Shown here in pieces: positions 1 to 18,623 of a stretch of DNA of 19,011 nt. This DNA is from Promethearchaeota archaeon (GTDB lineage Archaea > Asgardarchaeota > Lokiarchaeia > Sigyniarchaeales > SOKP01): positions 1-19,011 of the forward strand of contig JBHLNT010000075.1 of NCBI GenBank assembly GCA_048941265.1. Reading direction: 5' to 3'. The notes under the pieces were generated by a model, which saw nothing but the letters and a program-made list of their open reading frames with translations, ran no database searches and was not told the origin of the DNA. Position numbers and translations under genes: made by a program. Within the stretch, counting starts at the first letter, position 1. The number at the start of each line of letters is the position of its first letter.

Positions 1-767
1 TGAGATCTTTCAACATGTCGTACCTTTTTGACGAGTTGCTTGAAGCTATTCATGATATTATACATTTCTGACTTCGGATAATCATCAATATTTTTTAACA
101 CATAAAAGATATACACTTCAGCTTTTTCATATCTTTTTATCCGAAGACTAATATCAACAAGTTCTAAAAGAGCTAATTCATATAGGAATTTACTCTCGAT
201 ATTTGGAATTATTTTTTCAAAAATCCAATCAAGAATATTAGGCTGGTCAAATTTTTCGATAATATCAATTAAAAATTTCACAACAGTAAAATAAAGTTTA
301 GCATTTTCCGTCTTGGTTGAGCTTAAAAAAGAGACTAATGCGTATTTCACTCGTCCCATCGCATCCTCTAAATTTATTGGTTTTTCTGTAAATTTATAAA
401 ATGCTGATTCTAATATTGGCTTCACTTTTTCTCTGGCGTCGAAATCATACACGAAATATTCGCCCCAATTAGGACTCAGAGTTGCTGACTGTTTCGGGGC
501 ATCTTGCTTAATCTTTTGAGCTGAAGCTGATGCTTTTGATTTTGTGGTCTTTTTTGTCTCGGAAAGTACTTTGGCTTGCTCTTCAGAGATAATTTCAAGA
601 ATAATCTTATTTTTTTCCTGAGGGACAATCATTCTAAAAAAGACATCCTTATTCTCATCTTCGAATAGATCTTCTCGTAAATTCTTGGGAAATGTTATTC
701 CAGTCTTAGTTTTTTTTATTACTTCTTCAAAATAAAAATCGTCTTTTGAATCCTTTTCTTTCTCCAT
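1..767 (-). CDS. Hypothetical protein (runs off the window, >=255 aa): N-terminal AbrB/SpoVT-like domain, low-complexity linker, helical C-terminal region
   Basis: Not in the ORF track. Manual translation from ATG 767 is open to the window edge: MEKEKDSKDDFYFEEVIKKTKTGITFPKNLREDLFEDENKDVFFRMIVPQEKNKIILEII...VRHVERS. GITFPKNLREDL resembles the AbrB G-x-I-x-I-P-K-x-x-R-x-x-L motif. TATA-like TTATAAAA on the minus strand about 21 nt upstream. Confidence 0.85.
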   Translation of the reverse strand, partial: MEKEKDSKDDFYFEEVIKKTKTGITFPKNLREDLFEDENKDVFFRMIVPQEKNKIILEIISEEQAKVLSETKKTTKSKASASAQKIKQDAPKQSATLSPNWGEYFVYDFDAREKVKPILESAFYKFTEKPINLEDAMGRVKYALVSFLSSTKTENAKLYFTVVKFLIDIIEKFDQPNILDWIFEKIIPNIESKFLYELALLELVDISLRIKRYEKAEVYIFYVLKNIDDYPKSEMYNIMNSFKQLVKKVRHVERS

Positions 768-956: not shown

Positions 957-1541
957 CTAAGAATTAATATGTACTAGCTCAACTCCACGGACCACAAAAT
1001 CTCTGTCAATATAGGTAACTATTGCATGTCCTTTATGAATATAAACTATAGGTACAGGAAAAGAGGTCTCACTTTCCATTATGCTTTTTTTAACATACAT
1101 TGATAGAGTAGCTTTACAAACTCGACAGAGAACGTCAACTTTCTTAACTAATCGCAAACTATGAAAATTCTCTATGATCCGATCCATTTCTTGTTTAAAA
1201 TGTTTAAAAATTACAGGATTTGTATTACTATAAGAAAGAATAGAGTCAAGATCATACATCTCATTGAATTGTTTATCAATTTCTTCAATTAGGGCTTCTA
1301 AAATTTGATATTGCAGATCATTAGCTCCAATTGAATATATTAAGTTGTGCTTTCTAATATGTACAATCTTCAAATTACCTTTATTAATATGAAAGAAAAT
1401 ATCGCTAACCTTGTTTTCTTTTACTATATTTAAATCTAATATAAAACTTTTGAATGATCTGGGAGGTTTCCATTCAAATAAAACGAGATCTTCACTCGAG
1501 ATGTTTATGAATTGTATGTATTCTTTAATATCCTCTAACAT
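957..1541 (-). CDS. Longin-like domain fused to a C-terminal CxxC...HxxH putative Zn-binding domain
   Basis: 194 aa. Longin-like pattern (LKIVHIRKHNLIYSIG / QILEALIEEIDKQFNEMY / FKHFKQEMDRII), then CRVC...YIHKGHAIVTYIDRDFVVRG. The CDS is well supported; the fold is inferred. Confidence 0.65.
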   Translation of the reverse strand: MLEDIKEYIQFINISSEDLVLFEWKPPRSFKSFILDLNIVKENKVSDIFFHINKGNLKIVHIRKHNLIYSIGANDLQYQILEALIEEIDKQFNEMYDLDSILSYSNTNPVIFKHFKQEMDRIIENFHSLRLVKKVDVLCRVCKATLSMYVKKSIMESETSFPVPIVYIHKGHAIVTYIDRDFVVRGVELVHINS

Positions 1542-1635: not shown

Positions 1636-2478
1636 TTGGATAAAAAAAGAAAATTCAGAGAACTTCAAGATTTCAAAAAAACGCAATTAAATGGGAAATA
1701 TGAAAACCTATCGTTTACAATTGTTTTAATTTCTCCAGAAACTGCGGGAAATATAGGTGCAATAGCAAGAGTTATGAAAAATTTCGATTTTAAAAACCTC
1801 GTTATATTTAATCCAATTGAAGAAATTAATAAGATATTAGATTATGAAACATATGGATATGCTATGCATGGTAGGGATATTCTTCAAAATGCAAAAATTA
1901 TAATTATTGATGATAAAAAGAATCATCTATCTGAACTTAAAACTCTTCTAAAAAATTTCGATTTAGTGGTTGCTACTACTGCAAAAGGAAAAAAATATAC
2001 TAATATCAAACGGATTGCAGTGTTTCCCGAAGATTTTTGGCTACCTATCTCAGAAAAACCAATAAATATTGCGATATTATTTGGTAAAGAATCACGAGGC
2101 CTAACCAATGATGAGATTAGGCTTGCTGATATGATATTAAGAATTCCGGCTAGTGAAGAATACCCTTCTTTAAATCTTTCTCATGGATGTGCAATTATTT
2201 TGTATGAAATTTTTAAAAAGTTGAATATTTTAAATGTCGGAAGAGGAAAAAAACCAGTTTTATTAGCAAATAAAATAGATCGATTGATTTTATATGATTT
2301 CATTAAAGAAGCCATTGAAATTCTTAAATTAAAAAGCTATAAAGAAGATTATGTATATCGAGCATTTAAAAATGTATTTGAACGTGCGTTTATATCAAAA
2401 AAAGAGTTAAGCTTGATGCTCGGACTCTTTTCGAAGGTTAATTCAATTTTAAAAGAAGTTAGACCCTATGAAGATTAA
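1636..2478 (+). CDS. trmJ: SPOUT RNA methyltransferase, TrmJ/TrmH family (likely tRNA C32/U32 2'-O-methyltransferase)
   Basis: Motifs PETAGNIGAIARVMKNF, AMHG, LFGKESRGLTNDE, IPASEEYPSLNLSH. TTG start with GGTGA RBS at 1625-1629. Confidence 0.88.
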   Translation: MDKKRKFRELQDFKKTQLNGKYENLSFTIVLISPETAGNIGAIARVMKNFDFKNLVIFNPIEEINKILDYETYGYAMHGRDILQNAKIIIIDDKKNHLSELKTLLKNFDLVVATTAKGKKYTNIKRIAVFPEDFWLPISEKPINIAILFGKESRGLTNDEIRLADMILRIPASEEYPSLNLSHGCAIILYEIFKKLNILNVGRGKKPVLLANKIDRLILYDFIKEAIEILKLKSYKEDYVYRAFKNVFERAFISKKELSLMLGLFSKVNSILKEVRPYED

Positions 2479-2490
2479 AAAATATAAAGA

Positions 2491-4191
2491 TTATTTTTGT
2501 ATAGGATACTTTCCTATTGTCCTTGTCGCCCTTAGTATCGCTCTCATGTTCCCTACAGGCATATCTCTTGGAATCTCACAACCAAATGCTAACCAGTATC
2601 CTCCTCCTTTGCCTGCAATTTTTATATGTTCGGCGCAATCATCATACACTGCTTTAGGACTGGCGTTGATAAGTTTATTATAATTTAAATTTCCCATAAT
2701 AGTAACCTTATCTTTGAGGAGTTGTTTAGCCCAAGCTAAATCTACTTGATAATCGAATTGGATGGCACCACCAGGATTGGTTTCTTTGACAAAGGGAACA
2801 CATTGAGGAACGTATCCACAACAATGAATTAGTGGATACATGCCCATTTTTCTTATAGCACGGCATAGTTTTTTTTCTGGTTCCAATACAAATTCTTTGA
2901 AAAACTTTGGAGACATGAAATAACCTGCAGTTTCGCCAGCTCCAATGATCTCTGCACCGGCCTCATACATTGCATTAGCTATATTAATTGCCCAGTCAGC
3001 GTACCAATCGAGTATCTCTTTAAATTCATCGGGATGGTCGAGTACATAAAATAAAAGAAACGGATCTCCGCCACCCAATAAAGCAGTTCCTTGAAAGGGG
3101 GCCTCTAACCAACCAATCAAAGGTACATCGTCTCCAATTTCCTTTTTTACGATTCTGATAGCCTTAAGAGATTCTGCTAAACGACTGGGACTCAAAGGAT
3201 CAGGCATTTTCAAGCTTTTAAAATCTTTATACAAATTCCCTTGAGATAGAACTGGCTTTACGATTCGAGGAACATCATCGTGAGGATACTCACACTTGGC
3301 TCCGCATGCCTCTGCGTATATCCCAACGTCGGAAGAAAAGCAAAATGCATCCCATCCCAGAGCATTATAAGCTTTTAACTGCCCCTCTGCCATTTTTTCT
3401 GCTTTACTCACATATTCAGAAAAGGGGATTTCCGCAAATTTTGCAGTAAAAGTTTGCGCAAATGGCATAAAAGGAATTCTATCGGGTTCTTTATGCTTAA
3501 GAGATGTCATAACACGATCATATGCGGTCATTTCAGCTTTCAGATCTTCCGAAAATTCCTTTACTTTTACTATTAATTCATTTACATCTTCTACATATGC
3601 ATCTATGTTGTATTTCTCTGCCATCGCACGAGATCCTGCCGGACCGCTAAGTATTGTCCTAATTTTATGGCGAATCCCACGATTCCATAGTTCCTGTTCT
3701 AGTTTTGCTATTTCCGCTTGAGACTGCATAAGGTATATAGCGGATGCTACAATTCTCGCATTTGAATCAGCAGCTGCTTGAGCTATCTTTTCAGGGGGTA
3801 TATCTGAGCCCACATCGATAACTTCAAAGCCATGTGCTTTTAGATTAGCAGAAACGATAGCATTCCCTATAGTCCAAGGACCTCCCATAACTCCTATTAC
3901 GACTTTCTCCTCGGGACTTTTTTCCTCTTCTGAAACAGGAAGTGATCGGGCCCCCACTTCAAAAGCCGCAGCCGAAACGACAATATCATCTAAGTACATT
4001 CCCTCTTTCTTATATTTCCGACTTATGGCAGTTATTCCAGCTGAGAGGGCTTGGATAATTTCTTGTGGAGTAAACCCTTCTCTCTTAGCTTTTCTCACTA
4101 ATTTACCTATTTCCTTATATTTTCCCCTTAAAGTTAATTCGGTAATTTCTTCTAAGATATTATTAGATATTTTAATCAGCTCGTTTTTCAA
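2491..4191 (-). CDS. Fusion of corrinoid-protein domains (cap + B12-binding Rossmann) and an MtaA/CmuA-type (URO-D fold) methyltransferase
   Basis: aa 1-220: helical cap then KVVIG...GFEVIDVGSDIPPEK...RGIRHKIRTILSG. From aa 221: MTAYDRV...PDRIP, and Zn motifs IHCCG and FGCEIP. TTG start. Confidence 0.88.
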   Translation of the reverse strand: MKNELIKISNNILEEITELTLRGKYKEIGKLVRKAKREGFTPQEIIQALSAGITAISRKYKKEGMYLDDIVVSAAAFEVGARSLPVSEEEKSPEEKVVIGVMGGPWTIGNAIVSANLKAHGFEVIDVGSDIPPEKIAQAAADSNARIVASAIYLMQSQAEIAKLEQELWNRGIRHKIRTILSGPAGSRAMAEKYNIDAYVEDVNELIVKVKEFSEDLKAEMTAYDRVMTSLKHKEPDRIPFMPFAQTFTAKFAEIPFSEYVSKAEKMAEGQLKAYNALGWDAFCFSSDVGIYAEACGAKCEYPHDDVPRIVKPVLSQGNLYKDFKSLKMPDPLSPSRLAESLKAIRIVKKEIGDDVPLIGWLEAPFQGTALLGGGDPFLLFYVLDHPDEFKEILDWYADWAINIANAMYEAGAEIIGAGETAGYFMSPKFFKEFVLEPEKKLCRAIRKMGMYPLIHCCGYVPQCVPFVKETNPGGAIQFDYQVDLAWAKQLLKDKVTIMGNLNYNKLINASPKAVYDDCAEHIKIAGKGGGYWLAFGCEIPRDMPVGNMRAILRATRTIGKYPIQK

Positions 4192-4376
4192 TTAAGTAAA
4201 AATGTTAAAATGAATATATTAAAGAAAATTAATTGATAATTGAATGAGCTTCTATAAAAATATTTAGAAAACCCTTTTTTCATTAAGGTATATATAGAGG
4301 AAAAACAATTGTTAAATCAATAATTTGATCTTTAATAATCTCTTTTGGTAGAATAATTAAAATAGAATGATTGATT

Positions 4377-5774
4377 ATGAGTAAAAAAACAAAATCAGGG
4401 GAAGATATAACCACCAAAGGTTTTTTAGCATTTGGAATCGGTCAATTCTCAGATGCTATAGCACTTCAAATGATCACAATTTATCTTTTTACTTTTTACT
4501 TCGCAATAGTGGGATTAAATGTAAATCTCATTACAATAGGATTTATACTTTGGTCTATATGGAACGCTATTAATGATCCATTACTCGGAGCATTATCCGA
4601 TAGAACTAAAACGAGATGGGGAAGACGTACCCCATATATTGTAGGGGGTCTTTTTCCTTTATGTGTCGTAATAGTTTTACTATACGTTCCACCTGTAGGT
4701 GTAGAAATAATTTCCTTTATTTACTTTCTTATCGTATTGATTTTATTTGATGCATTTTTTACAATGTATGATTTAAATTATTGCGCACTTTTTCCTGAGC
4801 AATTCAAAGATTTAGACCAAAGAGCTAAAGCGAGTGCTTTTAAGCAACTATTTACTATAATCGGTTTGCTGTTTGTATTCATAATCCCTACAATTATCAT
4901 TCCTGATTTAACAAATAAAAAATATATTGTTAATTATATGTATGCCGCACTTACAATGATAATTTTCATAATTTTAGGGGCAGCAATAATGATAAAATTT
5001 GGAATAAAACAAAGAGTAGAATTTTCTGAAGATTATAAAACCGCTCCTCCTATTTTGACTTCATTAAAATTTTCATTGAAGAATAAGAATTTTCGAATTT
5101 TTATTATAATGAATTTAATGTATTGGTATGTAGTTGGGATGCTTCCAATTATTGCGCCACTCTATGGAAGATTTGTTTTAGGGATAGGAGAAGGAGATGC
5201 TTACTTATTGGGGCTCTTATTAGGATTAGCATTTATTTCTGCGGCATGTTGTATGCCTTTATGGCGTTACATCACAATCAAAGTAGGGATGAAAAAAGGA
5301 GTAATGATCTCAATTATCACGTTTATTGTGACCCTTTCACCTTTCATGTTTATATATGATATCTCAACAGCTTTTTTCGCATTTATATTTGTTGGTTTAG
5401 GTCTTTCAGGTGCCATCTATTTTGGAGATATTATTCTCTCTGCAATTATTGATGATGATGAATTAAAAATAGGTACTAGACGTGATGGAGGATATTTTGG
5501 CATAAATGCGTTGATTACTAAATTATCCACAATTTTGGTAATAATTAGCATTAGTCTTGTTTTTAATACCGTCGGGTGGGCTGTATTCGAACCTGTTGCT
5601 ACTGAAAATATAATATTAGGACTAAGGATATTGATGTTTGTTTTCCCGGCAATAGCATTAACCATTGGTCTGATTGTGATTTCTCGTTTTCCAATTACAA
5701 AGGAAAAATATGAACAATTAAAACAAGATATCGAAAAATTGCATGTTGAAAAAAGAGAAAAACAAAGAAAATAA
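4377..5774 (+). CDS. MFS transporter, GPH (glycoside-pentoside-hexuronide:cation symporter, MelB-like) family
   Basis: WNAINDPLLGALSDRTKTRWGRRTPY signature, many hydrophobic segments, IDDDELKIGTRRDGGYFG motif. ATG 4377 preferred over TTG 4371. Confidence 0.9.
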   Translation: MSKKTKSGEDITTKGFLAFGIGQFSDAIALQMITIYLFTFYFAIVGLNVNLITIGFILWSIWNAINDPLLGALSDRTKTRWGRRTPYIVGGLFPLCVVIVLLYVPPVGVEIISFIYFLIVLILFDAFFTMYDLNYCALFPEQFKDLDQRAKASAFKQLFTIIGLLFVFIIPTIIIPDLTNKKYIVNYMYAALTMIIFIILGAAIMIKFGIKQRVEFSEDYKTAPPILTSLKFSLKNKNFRIFIIMNLMYWYVVGMLPIIAPLYGRFVLGIGEGDAYLLGLLLGLAFISAACCMPLWRYITIKVGMKKGVMISIITFIVTLSPFMFIYDISTAFFAFIFVGLGLSGAIYFGDIILSAIIDDDELKIGTRRDGGYFGINALITKLSTILVIISISLVFNTVGWAVFEPVATENIILGLRILMFVFPAIALTIGLIVISRFPITKEKYEQLKQDIEKLHVEKREKQRK

Positions 5775-5888: not shown

Positions 5889-7304
5889 GTGAAAAAAGAA
5901 GATATTTGTTTTATGTCTGCTTGGGATATGGCAGAAAAAATTAGAACTCAAGAATTGACCTCTTTAGAGATAACGGAAGCGATTATTGAGAGAATAGAAA
6001 AAATTAATCCGATTATTAATGCTTATTGTACTACATCCTTCGATTTAGCCAGAGAGATGGCAAAAAAAGCAGACAATACATTTAAAAAGGGGGAAAAGTT
6101 AGGGCTCTTATATGGAATACCTACATCTATTAAAGATCTCATAGAAACTAAGGGTATTAGAACTACCTTTGGAAGCAAAATTTATGAAAATCATATCCCT
6201 GAAGAAGATAATATGACAGTTAAAAAGTTAAAAGAAGCAGGGATTGTACTTCTTGGAAAGACCAATACTCCAGAGGATGGACATAAAGCCGTGACAGACA
6301 ATTTAATTTTTGGGGAATCAAAGAATCCGTGGAAACTGGATCGAACATGTGGAGGTTCGAGTGGAGGGGCAGCTGCCGCCGTCGCTTCAGGATTAGGTCC
6401 ATTAGCATTAGGGTCTGATGGGGGTGGCTCAATCAGAATACCTAGCTGTTTCTGCGGAATTTATGGATTAAAACCCAATTTTGGGAGAATTGCTAGAAAG
6501 TTTAGACATCTTGCATTTTGTACGATGTCTCATTACGGCCCAATCGTAAGGTATGTAAAGGATGCTGCTTTAATGCTGGATGTAATGGCAGGTTCAGATC
6601 CAATTGATAAATACTCAATACCCCAACCAGATGTGAGTTTCTTAAAAGCTCTAAATGAAAAGCCAAATAGATTAAAAATCGGCTATTCTCTTGATTTAGG
6701 GTATGTTAAAGCTTTAGATGAAGAAGTTGAGCAAACAATTCTTAATGCTGTTAAAAAATTTGAACAATTTGATTGGTCAGTCGAAAAGAGTAAAATAAAA
6801 TTAAGAAAGGCCCCGGCAGTTATGGCTACATTAGTAACTTCTCCCTTTGCTTTTGATTATAAACCATTTTTAAAAGAATGGAGGGATAAAATAAGTCCTA
6901 CTTTACTCAGATTAATTGATGCAGGCATGAATCTTTCTGCTTTGGAATTTTTGAAAGCAGAGTCCCAAAGACAAGATATTGAACAAGTGGTTTATCAATT
7001 CTTTAAGAATTTTGATATTTTAATTACTCCAACTACGGCAGTTCCCCCTTTTGAATTAGGTAAAATGTTCCCCGAAAAAATCGCGGGTAAATCTGTATCT
7101 CCTGTGGGATGGATGCCTTTTGCTTTTCCATTTAATTTAACATGGAATCCCGCTGCTTCTATTCCATGTGGATGGACTAATGACGGATTACCAATTGGGA
7201 TGCAGATTGTCGGAAGAAAGTGGGATGAGGCTACAGTGCTTCAAGTTTCAAAAGCTTTTGAAGAAATAGCCCCATGGCAGGATAAAAAACCAACTTTTAG
7301 TTAA
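5889..7304 (+). CDS. Amidase-signature family amidase
   Basis: GIPTSIKD (catalytic Lys), GKTNTPE, GGSSGG, GSDGGGSIRIPS (nucleophile), GLPIGMQIVG. No gatB/gatC neighbours. Confidence 0.92.
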   Translation: MKKEDICFMSAWDMAEKIRTQELTSLEITEAIIERIEKINPIINAYCTTSFDLAREMAKKADNTFKKGEKLGLLYGIPTSIKDLIETKGIRTTFGSKIYENHIPEEDNMTVKKLKEAGIVLLGKTNTPEDGHKAVTDNLIFGESKNPWKLDRTCGGSSGGAAAAVASGLGPLALGSDGGGSIRIPSCFCGIYGLKPNFGRIARKFRHLAFCTMSHYGPIVRYVKDAALMLDVMAGSDPIDKYSIPQPDVSFLKALNEKPNRLKIGYSLDLGYVKALDEEVEQTILNAVKKFEQFDWSVEKSKIKLRKAPAVMATLVTSPFAFDYKPFLKEWRDKISPTLLRLIDAGMNLSALEFLKAESQRQDIEQVVYQFFKNFDILITPTTAVPPFELGKMFPEKIAGKSVSPVGWMPFAFPFNLTWNPAASIPCGWTNDGLPIGMQIVGRKWDEATVLQVSKAFEEIAPWQDKKPTFS

Positions 7305-7398
7305 TTAAGATCATTGGTAAAATTTGTTGAATTAAATAGTATAAATATGGATTGTTCCTTAAGTTAAGTATTATGTAATGATATGGAGGATAGAAATC

Positions 7399-8058
7399 TT
7401 GATTTATTTAGAAGAAAAATTTAATCTCATACCTGCCAGCCCGGTAACTCTTGAAGAATTTGTGAATTTTGCCCAGAAACAACTTGTTCCCGTCTGTGAA
7501 CGCCTTGGAACACGCCTTATTGCTGGTTGGTACACTAACTCCGAATGGTTCTCTCAAGTAACCCAAATTATAGAATTCGATGATATGGAAGCATTAAAAG
7601 CTTTCCGTATGAAAACCAGCCAAGATTCAGCATGGGGCGAATACGCAGCCCGTTTGGAGGATTTTGCCCCAGAACGGCGATCCCGGTTGCTAGAACCATT
7701 AGGACCTATACAGCCAAAAGTCTTACATAAAGCAATTAGAAGAAGCCAAAAAAAACCCTTAAAAGTCTATCTTTTGGCAACACTCGAGGTAGCTCCTAAC
7801 AAAATGCCAGATTTTCTTAATGGAATGGAACAAGCATCTAAAATGTTCCCGATTATAGCTAGTTGGCGTCCAATCGGCGGAAGCCCTAATGAAGTAATTG
7901 ATCTATGGAAGGGTGTCAAACTAATAACGGATGGATTTATAACGGGATACGAACCACCTAACGACTTTAGCAGAGAATTCTTTACCCAACTCCGGCAAAT
8001 CGCACCGAAAGAGCATGCGGAGCTGGTATTTACACTGCCCTATGCCCAATTACGATAA
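7399..8058 (+). CDS. NIPSNAP-like (dimeric alpha-beta barrel) two-domain protein
   Basis: (M)IYLEEKFNL...LIAGWY...IIEFDDMEALKAFR...DSAW...RSRLLEP, followed by a second related repeat (IIASWRPIGGSPNEVIDLW). GGAGG at 7385-7389 favours the in-frame TTG 7399 over ATG 7378. Confidence 0.72.
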   Translation: MIYLEEKFNLIPASPVTLEEFVNFAQKQLVPVCERLGTRLIAGWYTNSEWFSQVTQIIEFDDMEALKAFRMKTSQDSAWGEYAARLEDFAPERRSRLLEPLGPIQPKVLHKAIRRSQKKPLKVYLLATLEVAPNKMPDFLNGMEQASKMFPIIASWRPIGGSPNEVIDLWKGVKLITDGFITGYEPPNDFSREFFTQLRQIAPKEHAELVFTLPYAQLR

Positions 8059-16382: not shown

Positions 16383-18623
16383 TTAACTAGGCTGTAATTT
16401 CAAGATACCTTCTAAATTCTTTGTTATAGTTTCCTTGGTAAATAACATAGGAATATATTTTCCTTTTACGTATAACTTTATTAAATCATTATAATGCTTA
16501 TGGAATGGTAAGCCAGATTGCCCTCCTGGTATTATGCAAATAGAGTTATCCCAATCAGTCATGTCATGGATTTGACGAAAAGAAGGCCCAACAAGTGTAT
16601 CAAATGGATTTAAAGGATCAGCATACGCATTATTCAGCGTGTTTCTATCACCTCCTACTTTATAAGGCCCTATATTTAAGACTTTAGCTTCAGCGTTCGC
16701 AAGAGAGAAAGGATGAACTAGTGTTAATGTATGGATATTCCCCCATTTCCACTTATTGTGATCTTTAGAGACGTTTTTTGCTAGAAATTCAATTGTCATA
16801 TGAAATGTATTTAATAGAAGCTCCTTGAATTCCGCAGGTTTAGTATCATACAATTTAAATAATCGAATCAATTCAAGGGAAATGCTTCCTAAAAATGGGT
16901 TTAAACTTTCTTCCCCTATAAGAGGTATTAAAATGGCTTGTTGAAGTTTTAAAAACCAGACTTTATAAATTGTAGCAGCAATACTCTGTTTTGTCATATG
17001 AAAGTCCCAATTTTCTAAAATTGCTATGACGTCCAAATACTTATCAGGAATGTTACAAGTTTTTAAAATGTCTAATATTTTTGGTAATACTTCGGCGGCT
17101 TCTTCACTTCGCTGGTCTAGTTGAATATCGATAAAATCTTGAAAAGAAAATTTTTCTTTCGATTGAAATATCTTTTTTAATCTTCTATGTCGATAAGGCT
17201 CATCAGTATCTCGTGCTAGTAGTAGTCCTTTTGGCGCCTTATCTTCATTAAAATTTGCATTAAAAATATAGCCGCAGTCAGGATTATAAATCGAGACCAT
17301 TTCTTCATAGTTAGATAGACGTTCCCAATTATATTTTTCTTCAGTACCGGGAGTTGTAGTTGCTCCATCTCCATATTTCCGCACTGGGATCCTCCCTCCA
17401 TGCTGAAGACCTATATTTCCGTTTATGTCTCCATAGGAAAAATTGATTGGATTTATTGTTAGCAATTTTAATCCCTCCCGAAATTCTTCCCAATTTGAAG
17501 CTGCATCCACTTTAATAAATGCTTCTAATGAATCTTCTATATTAGCCACATAGCCAGACCAACGCAGAGCATAAGTACTAGGAAGTTGTATTTTATACAG
17601 GCGATCATCTCGTTCAAAATATTTCACAGCTGGTCCAAAGTTTGATACATATATTTTAAAAGGGATGGAATCTGAGTCTTTAACGATAATTGGGTCTTCT
17701 AGTATTTCAAAATTTATCCATTGTCCGTTATATTTATATTGGTTTTCATTTTCAGGATTTAAATCAAGCTTAAATAAGTCGATTGTATCAGCGTGAACAT
17801 TGGTCGCTCCAAATGCTATATGATCATTATGTCCAATGATTATTAAAGGAATTCCGGGAAATGAAGCACCAAAAATATTGAATTTTGGACAATGTAAATG
17901 AACTAAAAACCAAATTGCTGGAAGTGTAAGTGGCAAATGAGGATCATTTGCGAACAAAACTGAGCCTGTTTCGGACTTATTTGGGCTTACTATCCAACAA
18001 CTGCTTCCCATAGAGTTTGAAACTCTTGCACCAGAATAAAGAGGAATAAGACTGTCTGCCATTTTATGTCCTAATTTGCTAATTAATTGCTCCCTTAGTA
18101 TCTCCATTGGATAATTCCAACAACTCTGCCCCCAATCTATAAACGTTAGAACTTTGAGTGAATCTTCGATTTGCCAGTCCCTTATTTCCAAATTTAAAGC
18201 AGCAAATTCTACAGGGGGACTAATTCTTGCTTTCTCTAATCCTGCATTCACTCCGTTTTTATATGCATTTAAGCAACGGTACACTTGGCTGTCTTGATTT
18301 TTACCAATTCTTTCAGCACTACTTTTTGCCATTCGATGTAATCCAATAATTTTATAGTGTTTATCGCTATCAATCGCTTCTTCACTAACAATTTCTGAGA
18401 GTTCCCCGGATATTAAGCGTCTGAAGAGTTCCATTTGGAATAAACGATGGCGTGCATGAACATAGCCTTGAGAGAAATATGCATCTTCAGCACATTTAGC
18501 AAATATATGTGGAATACCCCATTTGTCCCATAATATTTCAACGTCCTTTTTAATACCTTCTAAAATCTCAGTACCCTTTAATGGAGGAAAAGCTTTTTTC
18601 GCAATTTCTAAAAAATTTTCCAT
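16383..18623 (-). CDS. Penicillin acylase family Ntn-hydrolase (peptidase S45)
   Basis: DKWGIPHIFA, LFQMEL, GSSCW...ANDPHL (Ser207 predicted nucleophile), PGGQSG. No signal peptide or N-terminal anchor. Confidence 0.92.
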   Translation of the reverse strand: MENFLEIAKKAFPPLKGTEILEGIKKDVEILWDKWGIPHIFAKCAEDAYFSQGYVHARHRLFQMELFRRLISGELSEIVSEEAIDSDKHYKIIGLHRMAKSSAERIGKNQDSQVYRCLNAYKNGVNAGLEKARISPPVEFAALNLEIRDWQIEDSLKVLTFIDWGQSCWNYPMEILREQLISKLGHKMADSLIPLYSGARVSNSMGSSCWIVSPNKSETGSVLFANDPHLPLTLPAIWFLVHLHCPKFNIFGASFPGIPLIIIGHNDHIAFGATNVHADTIDLFKLDLNPENENQYKYNGQWINFEILEDPIIVKDSDSIPFKIYVSNFGPAVKYFERDDRLYKIQLPSTYALRWSGYVANIEDSLEAFIKVDAASNWEEFREGLKLLTINPINFSYGDINGNIGLQHGGRIPVRKYGDGATTTPGTEEKYNWERLSNYEEMVSIYNPDCGYIFNANFNEDKAPKGLLLARDTDEPYRHRRLKKIFQSKEKFSFQDFIDIQLDQRSEEAAEVLPKILDILKTCNIPDKYLDVIAILENWDFHMTKQSIAATIYKVWFLKLQQAILIPLIGEESLNPFLGSISLELIRLFKLYDTKPAEFKELLLNTFHMTIEFLAKNVSKDHNKWKWGNIHTLTLVHPFSLANAEAKVLNIGPYKVGGDRNTLNNAYADPLNPFDTLVGPSFRQIHDMTDWDNSICIIPGGQSGLPFHKHYNDLIKLYVKGKYIPMLFTKETITKNLEGILKLQPS

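Follow-up and report, generated by a model that had tools for sequence, protein, structure and literature searches.

A corrinoid domain and a methyltransferase in one gene

The window (the whole stretch of DNA that was analysed, 19,011 nucleotides of contig JBHLNT010000075.1 from a Promethearchaeota archaeon) carries a gene that joins a corrinoid module to a methyltransferase domain, with a transporter gene transcribed divergently from it:

2491..4191, minus strand: corrinoid-domain/MtaA-like methyltransferase fusion, whole ORF (566 amino acids, TTG start, intact)
3958..4155, minus strand: B12-binding_2 four-helix cap, residues 13-78 (Pfam PF02607, 24.2 bits, cutoff 23)
3598..3903, minus strand: Rossmann-type B12-binding domain, residues 97-198 (Pfam PF02310, 43.6 bits, cutoff 32.1)
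2521..3522, minus strand: URO-D/MtaA-like TIM-barrel methyltransferase domain, residues 224-557 (Pfam PF01208, 6.5e-64)
4371..5774, plus strand: MFS_2/GPH-family transporter, divergently transcribed (Pfam MFS_2, 1.2e-58), a recurring neighbour of the fusion family

The architecture, a corrinoid module and an MtaA-like methyltransferase in one chain, is confirmed. The corrinoid module is N-terminal and the methyltransferase (MT2) domain C-terminal. The latter scores 216.6 bits on PF01208 (cutoff 23.9) and matches MtbA (PDB 4ay7) at 5.8e-20 with phmmer. An AF2 model of the fusion has a mean pLDDT of 88.5 and a pTM of 0.85, and its cap helices span residues 5-82. Foldseek aligned this model with MtbA 4ay7 (TMt 0.89, rmsd 2.3), MttC 7xcn (TMt 0.71) and 4jgi (TMt 0.68). 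The protein falls under every NCBIfam cutoff, scoring 92.9 bits on TIGR02370 (MtaC/MttC type, cutoff 215.3), 165.9 bits on TIGR01463 (MtaA/CmuA, cutoff 235.4), 118.7 on the MtaA equivalog (cutoff 400) and 111.1 on that of MtbA (cutoff 600). A search of the ESM Atlas with the fusion as query returned nothing outside its own cluster. Promoter and terminator sites were no commoner than in shuffled sequences, and a search of sequencing runs with the stretch recovered DNA runs only and no RNA run.

Tryptophan at the position of the cobalt ligand

Proteins tune the reactivity of cobalamin chiefly through the axial ligand of cobalt, which in the corrinoid proteins of methyl transfer (MetH, MtaC, MttC and their relatives) is a histidine. 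Three motifs of the corrinoid domain are altered in the fusion:

3865..3882, minus strand: GPWTIG loop in place of DxHxxG (W106, codon TGG at 3874-3876)
3730..3744, minus strand: SAIYL, residues 150-154, in place of SxL (Y153 and L154 invariant in the Trp family, defined below)
3640..3648, minus strand: SGP, residues 182-184, in place of GG (invariant in the Trp family)

The earlier note had placed a Trp at nt 3874-3876 where the cobalt-ligand His is expected. The TGG codon is read there (minus-strand codons GTT ATG GGA GGT CCT TGG ACT ATA GGG), and HMMER aligned W106 on the His of the G-D-x-H-x-I-G motif in the solved proteins MttC 7xcn and Moorella 1y80, with a one-residue gap preceding W106 in both alignments. 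The same note's altered SxL and GG motifs are likewise read in the ORF as SAIYL and SGP, and both are fixed across the Trp family. In MetH, the part of the fold to which SxL and GG belong houses the nucleotide tail. The AF2 model places the GPWTIG loop between a strand (residues 96-100) and a helix (108-119), and Y153 in the loop after strand 3; model confidence drops around these loops, to block means of 70 for residues 101-110 and 75 for residues 151-160.

The Trp family is conserved and monophyletic

Among 120 matches listed, GPW is present in every one of the 118 homologs spanning the site (the other two, P0106 and P0117, are fragments without the corrinoid domain). The earlier note had proposed checking the conservation of GPWTIG: the exact motif is found in 115 of the 118, and the remaining three read GPWSIG, GPWTMG and GPWTIS. 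We refer to these proteins as the Trp family. Its members share 62-95% identity with the fusion in Asgard archaea and 44-50% in bacteria; the bacteria belong to several anaerobic phyla, and the organisms are mostly non-methanogens. In an alignment of 24 Asgard and bacterial members, 47-50% identical between the two groups, the invariant residues include G104, P105, W106, I108, G109, Y153, L154, S182, G183 and P184. Few positions in the N-terminal half are as well conserved as these loops, which face the cofactor, and this speaks against a dead domain.

The family is monophyletic with 100% SH-aLRT in a tree of 43 family rows and four outgroups. A profile search of 1.84 billion representatives gave 830 bits, then a 512-bit fragment and then 267 bits. 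His-type fusions with the same domain order reached at most 204 bits on the family profile in that representative search, against 830 inside the family. Among the best 150 matches, DxHxxG is kept by 18 of the 21 fusions outside the family, and these 18 His-type fusions have S/T-x-L-type and GG motifs, in contrast to the A-I-Y-L and S-G-P of the Trp family.

The refuting outcomes named in the earlier note, orthologs with DxHxxG, decay or a sequence error, are ruled out by the 118 tryptophans in 118 homologs and the fully supported clade. In particular, an error of sequencing or assembly, or a pseudogene decaying in one genome, is so improbable that we set it aside; nothing in its favour was found. 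One in-frame stop each occurs in two relatives from other genomes (a TAA in G071 and a TGA in G129). The ORF in the window is intact, the motif recurs in many assemblies and sources, a second paralog in the same genome has it too, and the stretch is present in DNA sequencing runs of more than one study. By their sequence conservation, the Trp and the changes in SxL and GG are constant traits of a conserved family, and neither decay nor error.

The zinc-ligand motif of the methyltransferase domain

The C-terminal domain has the following cysteine and histidine features:

2818..2826, minus strand: H456-C457-C458 (H456 and C458 match H-x-C of MtbA in the alignment, with C457 as a further invariant Cys)
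2800..2802, minus strand: C464 (VPQC), a family-specific invariant Cys, missing from a 33%-identical split relative
2575..2583, minus strand: G537-C538-E539 (C538 aligns with the third zinc-ligand Cys of MtbA)

LIHCCG and AFGCEI of the fusion align with vlHiCG and lapGCgi of MtbA 4ay7, and H456, C457, C458, C464 and C538 are invariant in all 24 aligned sequences. The H-x-C...C positions are the zinc ligands of MtaA and MtbA. H456, C458 and C538 match the MtbA motifs, so the earlier reading of intact MT2 zinc ligands holds. Zinc does not by itself define the chemistry: some O-demethylases contain zinc and CdmB is without it, according to the available text of PMC13222342. That source assigns CdmB to a different, zinc-free URO-D clade; CdmB matches the fusion weakly (1.2e-6, residues 224-287).

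The Pfam name of this domain raises the question of whether it is instead a URO-D-like decarboxylase or another tetrapyrrole enzyme, with the fusion acting in cofactor metabolism. The hemE model TIGR01464 does score 81.9 bits, and many of the Foldseek matches are uroporphyrinogen decarboxylases. However, MtbA is the best match in both sequence and fold, the MtaA/CmuA-type models reach twice the hemE score, the H-x-C...C motif of MtaA and MtbA is invariant, and the neighbouring gene encodes an importer rather than a tetrapyrrole enzyme. We therefore regard a decarboxylase as very unlikely.

Genomic context of the fusion gene

The window transporter scores 178 bits on TIGR00792, under the cutoff of 231, and matches MelB 4m64 at 4.9e-19. 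In Asgard loci, a divergent MFS_2 gene lies no more than 1.2 kb upstream of the fusion gene in 14 of the 26 informative cases, and one gene farther away in two more. In bacteria, a scripted count found MFS_2 directly downstream on the same strand at 7 of 11 informative loci; L042 is an eighth case, in which the overlap of the listed ORF arises solely because the ORF was called too long. The MFS_2/GPH identity is backed by Pfam or NCBIfam at L029, L038, L039, L041 and L044, and L027 has a CUT1-type sugar ABC transporter in place of MFS_2. Fusion and transporter form a two-gene unit in the bacterial loci, without a corrinoid protein nearby. No second methyltransferase or activase adjoined the fusion gene in the loci examined.

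Because the genome has about 56 full-length MFS_2 matches, the transporter link in Asgard archaea carries less weight than the counts suggest. MFS_2 genes do not as a rule accompany URO-D genes in this genome, where an MFS_2 match lies within 5 kb of only 4 of the 27 URO-D matches. We also rejected co-transfer of transporter and enzyme as one module, as the bacterial neighbours are not orthologs of the window transporter: they share 24-30% identity with the proteins of the genome that match them best, which were C274 for five of six and C26 for that of L029, and never the window gene. TrmJ, an amidase, a NIPSNAP-like protein, a small GTPase, an M32 peptidase and the families c2, c3, c5 and c7 were rejected as partners of the system, being conserved in Asgard loci only and absent from the bacterial ones. 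Such Asgard-only conservation is read as the synteny of relatives, outside the system. A separate observation concerns a 349-amino-acid neighbour at L039, L041 and L042, which had no Pfam, NCBIfam or PDB sequence match and gave weak glycosyl-hydrolase-like leads at 0.91-0.92 in the ESM Atlas.

Other corrinoid proteins of the genome

DxHxxG is present in all 12 MtaC-type corrinoid proteins that the genome encodes, and only two of its proteins have W, the paralogous fusions C352 and C28. In the genome scan the B12-binding score of the fusion was 46.7 bits, compared with 62-89 bits for the 12 DxHxxG proteins. Two RamA-like activase matches indicate that corrinoid methyl transfer is in use in this genome. 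In other Asgard genomes we found a His-type split pair, consisting of a corrinoid protein and a 33%-identical methyltransferase.

These data bear on whether the N-terminal module holds a corrinoid at all. It could be a corrinoid-free scaffold, docking or regulatory domain, in line with the repurposed B12 domain suggested in the earlier note, with the MtaA-like domain using a separate His-on protein. All three B12 motifs are off canon, the Pfam and NCBIfam family scores are low, a dozen canonical MtaC-type proteins are on offer in the genome, and other Asgard genomes have the His-type split pair. Against this, a relaxed loop would be expected to drift, but the replaced motifs are invariant over about 45-95% identity; no full-length family member has lost either the cap or the Rossmann module; and the bacterial two-gene unit has a transporter but no corrinoid protein beside the fusion gene. 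On balance we consider a corrinoid-free module unlikely, although it deserves attention, and we favour a module that would bind a cobamide.

Relation to known corrinoid enzymes

The closest solved matches are MttC 7xcn and MtbA 4ay7, and the fusion shares its two folds and zinc-ligand motif with the pairs formed by MtaC, MttC or MtbC with MtaA or MtbA. It differs from them in that the two parts are fused, and in the replacement of His by Trp, of SxL by x-Y-L and of GG by SG. Fusions of this general kind have been described in Methanosarcina acetivorans, where the available text on MtsD, MtsF (CmtA) and MtsH reports fused corrinoid/methyl-transfer proteins that are thought to carry out methylthiol:acceptor transfer with one methyltransferase site (bioRxiv 10.1101/548461; PMC7374477), and activity of MtsF (CmtA) in vitro (bioRxiv 10.1101/548461). 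By these descriptions, they resemble the window protein in having corrinoid and MT2 domains in one polypeptide, whereas they serve coenzyme M in a methanogen.

CmuA is likewise a methyltransferase/corrinoid fusion without the His ligand. A CmuA-like representative, P0281 (TIGR01463, 379.5 bits), has Gln at the His position, in agreement with the non-His motif that had been attributed to CmuA, and it keeps GG. Its domain order is reversed, with the methyltransferase at residues 2-349 and the corrinoid domain at 419-625, and it forms a branch separate from the Trp family in the corrinoid-domain tree, which indicates independent loss of His. The corrinoid domains of two other proteins, P0305 and P0347, do cluster with those of the Trp family (SH-aLRT 97%, and 94% when 27 motif columns were removed). 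After strand 3 their loop has the same G-[VIL]-Y motif as the family, but they have an N-terminal methyltransferase and a C-terminal corrinoid domain, Gln or Met for Trp, and GGK for SGP. Judged from tree and motifs, the corrinoid domain of the Trp family belongs to a wider His-less lineage with a shared Tyr after strand 3.

A non-ligating side chain under base-off cobalamin in a Rossmann-type domain has precedents in TokK, TsrM, QueG and CFeSP. In the available text of the review PMC13331322, Trp76 lies under a four-coordinate cobalt in TokK, an Arg blocks the lower cobalt face in QueG and TsrM, and Trp beneath cobalt is known only from TokK, a radical-SAM enzyme. These precedents belong to other enzyme classes (radical SAM enzymes, epoxyqueuosine reductase and an Fe-S corrinoid protein), and Pfam found no radical SAM family in the fusion. 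Moreover, as TokK is described there, the loop after strand 3 supplies its Trp, whereas that of the fusion comes from the His position after strand 1. Our literature search found no description of a Trp-for-His corrinoid/methyltransferase variant; one paper that it matched is, judging by title and abstract, a taxonomic account of a sulfate reducer.

The comparison with TokK allows a further reading, in which cobamide is bound with some other lower ligand (its own base, as in base-on binding, the Y153 side chain, or a water molecule that Y153 holds) and the Trp only shapes the pocket. The changes from GG to SG and from SxL to x-Y-L touch the region that houses the nucleotide tail in MetH, and the invariant Y153 belongs to the loop that, by the available account of TokK, supplies the sub-corrin residue there. 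However, a bulky Trp stands at the exact His position, and in the available text of the review a Tyr ligand in a Rossmann-type B12 domain is unreported (PMC13331322). Another lower ligand thus seems to us rather improbable.

A proposed mechanism

We lean, with modest confidence, towards a single-chain His-off corrinoid methyltransferase in which Trp blocks the lower cobalt face and which acts on an imported methylated substrate. The domain architecture, the strictly conserved motif replacement, the intact zinc-ligand motif and the recurrent transporter gene are observed, whereas we infer that a cobamide is bound, that it is His-off, how this alters its redox behaviour, which way the methyl group moves and on what substrate. 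In the proposed scheme, the MtaC-like cap and Rossmann module would carry the cobamide and swing it onto the active site of the fused TIM barrel, where the His-Cys-Cys zinc site of the MtaA-like domain may activate the methyl donor or acceptor. Where MtaC, MttC and MetH offer His to cobalt from the strand-1 loop, the fusion would offer the invariant Trp, and W106, the Y153 loop and the reshaped SGP may together fill the space beneath the corrin. Since Trp cannot ligate, the cobalt would be without a protein ligand, that is, His-off and four- or five-coordinate. Such a state would be expected to favour Co(I)/Co(II) and to let methyl-Co(III) donate its methyl group more readily. As substrate, a methylated small molecule may be imported by the neighbouring GPH/MFS_2 symporter; candidates are S-methyl or O-methyl compounds, possibly glycoside-like. 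The self-contained enzyme and the methyl-thiol or methyl-halide substrate put forward in the earlier note would likewise be conjectural. That a sugar-type importer recurs beside the fusion suggests a class of methylated substrates not yet assigned to corrinoid enzymes.

A bolder version, which we hold to be an unlikely extension, is that the Trp family and its Gln/Met sisters form a distinct, old His-less lineage in which W106 and Y153, aromatic residues of the loops after strands 1 and 3, seal the lower face, the permanently ligand-free cobalt has a raised Co(II)/Co(I) potential, and the enzyme demethylates imported O- or S-methyl glycoside-like compounds. If this were true, no dedicated corrinoid protein and little or no ATP-driven reactivation would be needed. 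Methylated sugars from algal or plant polymers and methylthio-sugars would be example substrates.

Significance for B12-dependent methyl transfer

A conserved clade has exchanged the axial His for a bulky non-ligating residue and remodelled two other B12 motifs in step. This would be a natural experiment on the purpose of His-on binding, in terms of redox potential, the need for reductive reactivation and methyl-donor strength, and as the protein is a single 566-residue chain, the question is open to direct test. The Trp clade points to an uncharacterised handling of B12 in methyl transfer. To our knowledge, methyl-group metabolism in Asgard archaea is known almost only from gene lists. Should the extended proposal prove true, the family would represent a route, so far overlooked, by which methyl groups enter C1 metabolism in Asgard archaea and anaerobic sediment bacteria.

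Domain architecture and cofactor motifs of the fusion

The window is the complete contig C352 of the G000 assembly (5.0 Mb in 361 contigs, 91% complete) and is AT-rich, with a G+C content of 32%. It encodes an intact corrinoid/methyltransferase fusion with the following features.

2491..4191, minus strand: fusion ORF, 566 amino acids (ORF call)
Residues 13-78 of the fusion, minus strand: B12-binding_2 cap (Pfam)
Residues 97-198 of the fusion, minus strand: B12-binding Rossmann domain (Pfam)
Residues 224-557 of the fusion, minus strand: URO-D domain (Pfam, 6.5e-64)

The top NCBIfam models are MtaA/CmuA-type methyltransferases and methyltransferase-cognate corrinoid proteins, every one under its curated cutoff. 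By sequence, the closest solved structures are MtbA for the C-terminal domain (4ay7, 5.8e-20) and MttC for the N-terminal half (7xcn, 1.3e-17). The AlphaFold2 model, made from a 24-sequence alignment, is confident (pLDDT 88.5, pTM 0.85), and Foldseek aligned it with both structures (TMt of 0.89 for 4ay7 and 0.71 for 7xcn). The fusion is architecturally complete as a corrinoid carrier joined to an MtaA-type zinc methyltransferase. On sequence grounds it would work like a fused MtaC/MtaA system, and it is a member of none of the curated MtaC, MtaA, MtbA and CmuA families, because it misses their cutoffs and lacks the His, SxL and GG features.

The minus-strand codons GGA GGT CCT TGG ACT ATA GGG place W106 at the TGG of nucleotides 3874-3876. 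HMMER alignments pair this residue with the His of G-D-x-H-x-I-G in MttC and in the Moorella corrinoid protein 1y80, and in the model it is predicted to occupy the loop joining strand 96-100 to helix 108-119, the place of the ligand His in the corrinoid fold. The fusion reads SAIYL at the SxL motif and SGP at the GG motif. In the methyltransferase domain, LIHCCG and FGCEI match the corresponding stretches of MtbA; these MtbA-type motifs and scores make it unlikely that the C-terminal domain is instead a decarboxylase. The earlier note had described Trp replacing the cobalt-ligand His at 3874-3876, altered SxL and GG motifs and intact MT2 Zn ligands (HCC...GC), and its observation was right in all details.

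Conservation and limits of the Trp family

A word-indexed search recovered 233 homologs. Among the best 120 of these, identity to the fusion is 62-95% in Asgard archaea (Promethearchaeota/Lokiarchaeia, Hermod-, Hod-, Thor- and Jordarchaeia) and 47-50% in bacteria. With P0106 and P0117 left out as fragments without the corrinoid domain, G-P-W occurs in 118/118 of the homologs spanning the site. The longer motif GPWTIG, whose conservation the earlier note had proposed to check, is unchanged in 115 of the 118, the remaining three being GPWSIG, GPWTMG and GPWTIS. Invariant positions in the 24-sequence alignment are G104, P105, W106, I108, G109, Y153, L154, S182, G183 and P184 in the corrinoid half and H456, C457, C458, C464 and C538 in the methyltransferase half. 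The three cofactor-facing motifs have been exchanged for other residues that are as invariant as the canonical ones.

In a profile search without word index, run against 1.84 billion representatives, scores fell from 830 bits (family representative) to 512 (a fragment) and 267 (next match), and this drop bounds the Trp family sharply. The top 150 matches include 21 non-family fusions of corrinoid and URO-D domains, in either domain order. At the His position 18 of these have DxHxxG, two have Gln and one has Met; P0281, which is among the Gln proteins, resembles CmuA (TIGR01463, 379.5 bits) and has its methyltransferase domain at the N-terminus.

Of the 36 B12-binding matches in G000, we read the 31 strongest. 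Twelve short MtaC-type proteins (209-253 aa) all carry DxHxxG, EEYHEVG is present in one ORF and DGH(D/W)RG in two short ones, and fourteen longer ones are without a DxHxxG-type motif. Among the 31, W occurs at the His position in two fusions only, that of the window and a second paralog on C28, which is cut by the contig end and has the same motif. Because GPW is family-wide, the paralog is alike and the 12 MtaC-type proteins keep DxHxxG, decay, sequence error and an organism-wide habit are excluded as causes of the Trp, and a reading of the gene as a sequencing error or pseudogene is refuted.

Six B12-binding ORFs (473-502 aa), none with DxHxxG, are grouped on G000 contig C164 (2533-27737); they are probably B12-dependent radical SAM-type enzymes.

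Evolution of the Trp family

In a quick IQ-TREE phylogeny of full-length sequences (43 family rows from loci and window, 4 His-type outgroups), the Trp family is monophyletic (SH-aLRT 100%). All 30 Asgard rows form a single clade (100%) nested among bacterial rows that form a grade (Chloroflexota, Abyssobacteria/Hydrogenedentota-type, Spirochaetota, Bacillota, Myxococcota-labelled and NPL-UPA2). Because the outgroup branches are long, an origin in bacteria followed by a single transfer to Asgard archaea is offered as a suggestion only.

True family members (>=877 bits) occur in 9 of 151 sampled Asgard genomes, G000 counted, which fall in two of 27 family-level groups. Two Asgard members have one in-frame stop each (G071:C23:44167-45840, TAA; G129:C260:4574-6244, TGA). 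Two more of the 151 genomes, G070 and G088, score ~341 bits. The G070 match consists of two unfused proteins: a corrinoid protein of 212 aa carrying YTDIHTIG and, after it, a methyltransferase of 348 aa that is 33% identical to that domain of the fusion and has the same GKYPIQ C-terminus.

L048 (G070:C67), 1992-3707: unfused His-type pair
L048, flanks 27-1595 and 3834-5264: a GH38-like gene and a sulfatase, on either side of the pair

A further corrinoid protein begins at 5367 of this locus.

Of the separate domain trees proposed in the earlier note, that of the corrinoid domain was built, with 41 rows, and repeated with 29 rows after removal of 27 motif columns. The Trp family groups with P0305 (Gln) and P0347 (Met), both reversed-order URO-D/corrinoid fusions, with SH-aLRT of 97% (94% without the motif columns), and the CmuA-like Gln protein is on a separate branch, apart from the Trp family. 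The loop motif is G-V-Y in P0305 and P0347, (A/G)-(I/L)-Y in the Trp family and S-x-L in His-type proteins. Given these placements, loss of the His occurred on at least two occasions, and the Trp family is part of a broader His-less lineage characterized by a Tyr in the loop that follows strand 3.

Genomic context

ORFs were called and clustered in 47 fetched loci plus the window. Across these, the sole neighbor recurring in archaea and bacteria alike is an MFS_2/GPH-family transporter, which in the window is divergent from the fusion across a 180 bp gap.

3-767, minus strand: ORF without Pfam or NCBIfam family (c2 or c3)
957-1541, minus strand: ORF without Pfam or NCBIfam family (c2 or c3)
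4371-5774, plus strand: MFS_2/GPH transporter
5889-7304, plus strand: amidase (PF01425)
7378-8058, plus strand: NIPSNAP-like protein
16383-18623, minus strand: 746-aa penicillin-amidase-family protein

The transporter lies <=1.2 kb upstream in 14 of 34 Asgard loci (14 of the 26 with enough flank) and one gene farther off in L003 and L022. In 7 of 14 bacterial loci (7 of 11 informative) it is directly downstream, on the strand of the fusion; L042, where the listed ORF begins too early, is an eighth case. Pfam or NCBIfam confirmed its identity in L029, L038, L039, L041 and L044. An Abyssobacteria locus (L027) has instead a CUT1-type ABC system (SBP_bac_1, two permeases and a MalK-like ATPase).

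G000 has a very large MFS_2/GPH expansion, with 80 MFS_2 matches, about 56 of them full-length, in 5.0 Mb (e.g., C211:87553-88758, C53:5787-7046 and C303:2110-3336), and MFS_2 is <=5 kb from a URO-D match in only 4 of 27 cases. The bacterial neighbor transporters are just 24-30% identical to their best G000 matches, which are on C274 for five of six queries and on C26 for one, and never the gene of the window. This rules out one inherited module of transporter and fusion, and the sequences indicate that the same transporter family was recruited repeatedly beside the fusion.

Most Asgard loci have the ORFs at 957-1541 and 3-767 behind the fusion and on its strand (23 and 20 loci, respectively); their clusters, c2 and c3, are absent from the bacterial loci. 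The amidase and NIPSNAP-like gene are again near the fusion in some loci, all Asgard. A protein of 366 aa that ends in a 2x[4Fe-4S] ferredoxin domain (c14; e.g., L002:2800-3900) adjoins or is near the fusion in 8 loci, including L001, L002 and L032-L034, and might supply electrons for reducing the corrinoid.

In three bacterial loci a 318-349-aa protein lies beside the fusion-transporter pair.

L039:13215-14264, 318-349-aa protein
L041:3310-4359, 318-349-aa protein
L042:1999-2955, 318-349-aa protein

It belongs to a large, unnamed family (1192 matches) with invariant C-x-C-x-x-C and D-E, for which no Pfam family was found. Weak similarity to glycosyl-hydrolase-like clusters of the ESM Atlas (0.91-0.92) offers the sole clue to what kind of protein it is.

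In the loci read, the fusion has no second methyltransferase, corrinoid protein or RamA-type activase beside it, and the two RamA-like matches in G000 are away from it. The N-terminal module may instead serve as a scaffold without cofactor, with the methyltransferase domain using a separate His-on corrinoid protein, one of the 12 in G000, but this is hard to reconcile with the invariance of precisely the replaced motifs and with the two-gene units in bacteria. The G000 assembly, 91% complete, yielded no CobS (PF02654), which may reflect a gap in the assembly or reliance on cobamide import.

Proposed mechanism and substrate

We propose that the corrinoid module of the fusion still binds a cobamide, and that W106, probably with Y153, would be packed beneath the ring, placing the cobalt out of reach of any protein ligand. 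Without a ligand, cobalt is more easily reduced to Co(I), and in the methyl-Co(III) state it donates its methyl group better to thiolates. Loading or unloading of the methyl group would then fall to the fused methyltransferase domain, at its zinc site. According to one review, Trp76 of TokK fills the space below the cobalt, with spectroscopy supporting four-coordinate cobalt, and Arg has the same role in TsrM and QueG (PMC13331322). A rival reading is that the cobamide is bound with a different lower ligand, namely its own base, water or Tyr153.

The architecture parallels that of MtsD/F/H of Methanosarcina, for which a preprint proposes both half-reactions at one site and describes MtsF as active in vitro (bioRxiv 10.1101/548461). 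Zinc would be compatible with thiol or thioether chemistry; it is also present in some O-demethylases, according to another study (PMC13222342). The importers of sugar type (GPH, CUT1), together with the glycosidase-like and sulfatase neighbors of relatives, hint weakly at a polar, perhaps glycoside-like, methylated substrate.

In a full-text literature search, with subscription journals mostly outside its scope, we found no description of a methyl-transfer corrinoid protein in which Trp takes the place of the His. The Trp family, described here from sequence and predicted structure, is of real interest to both B12 enzymology and Asgard metabolism.
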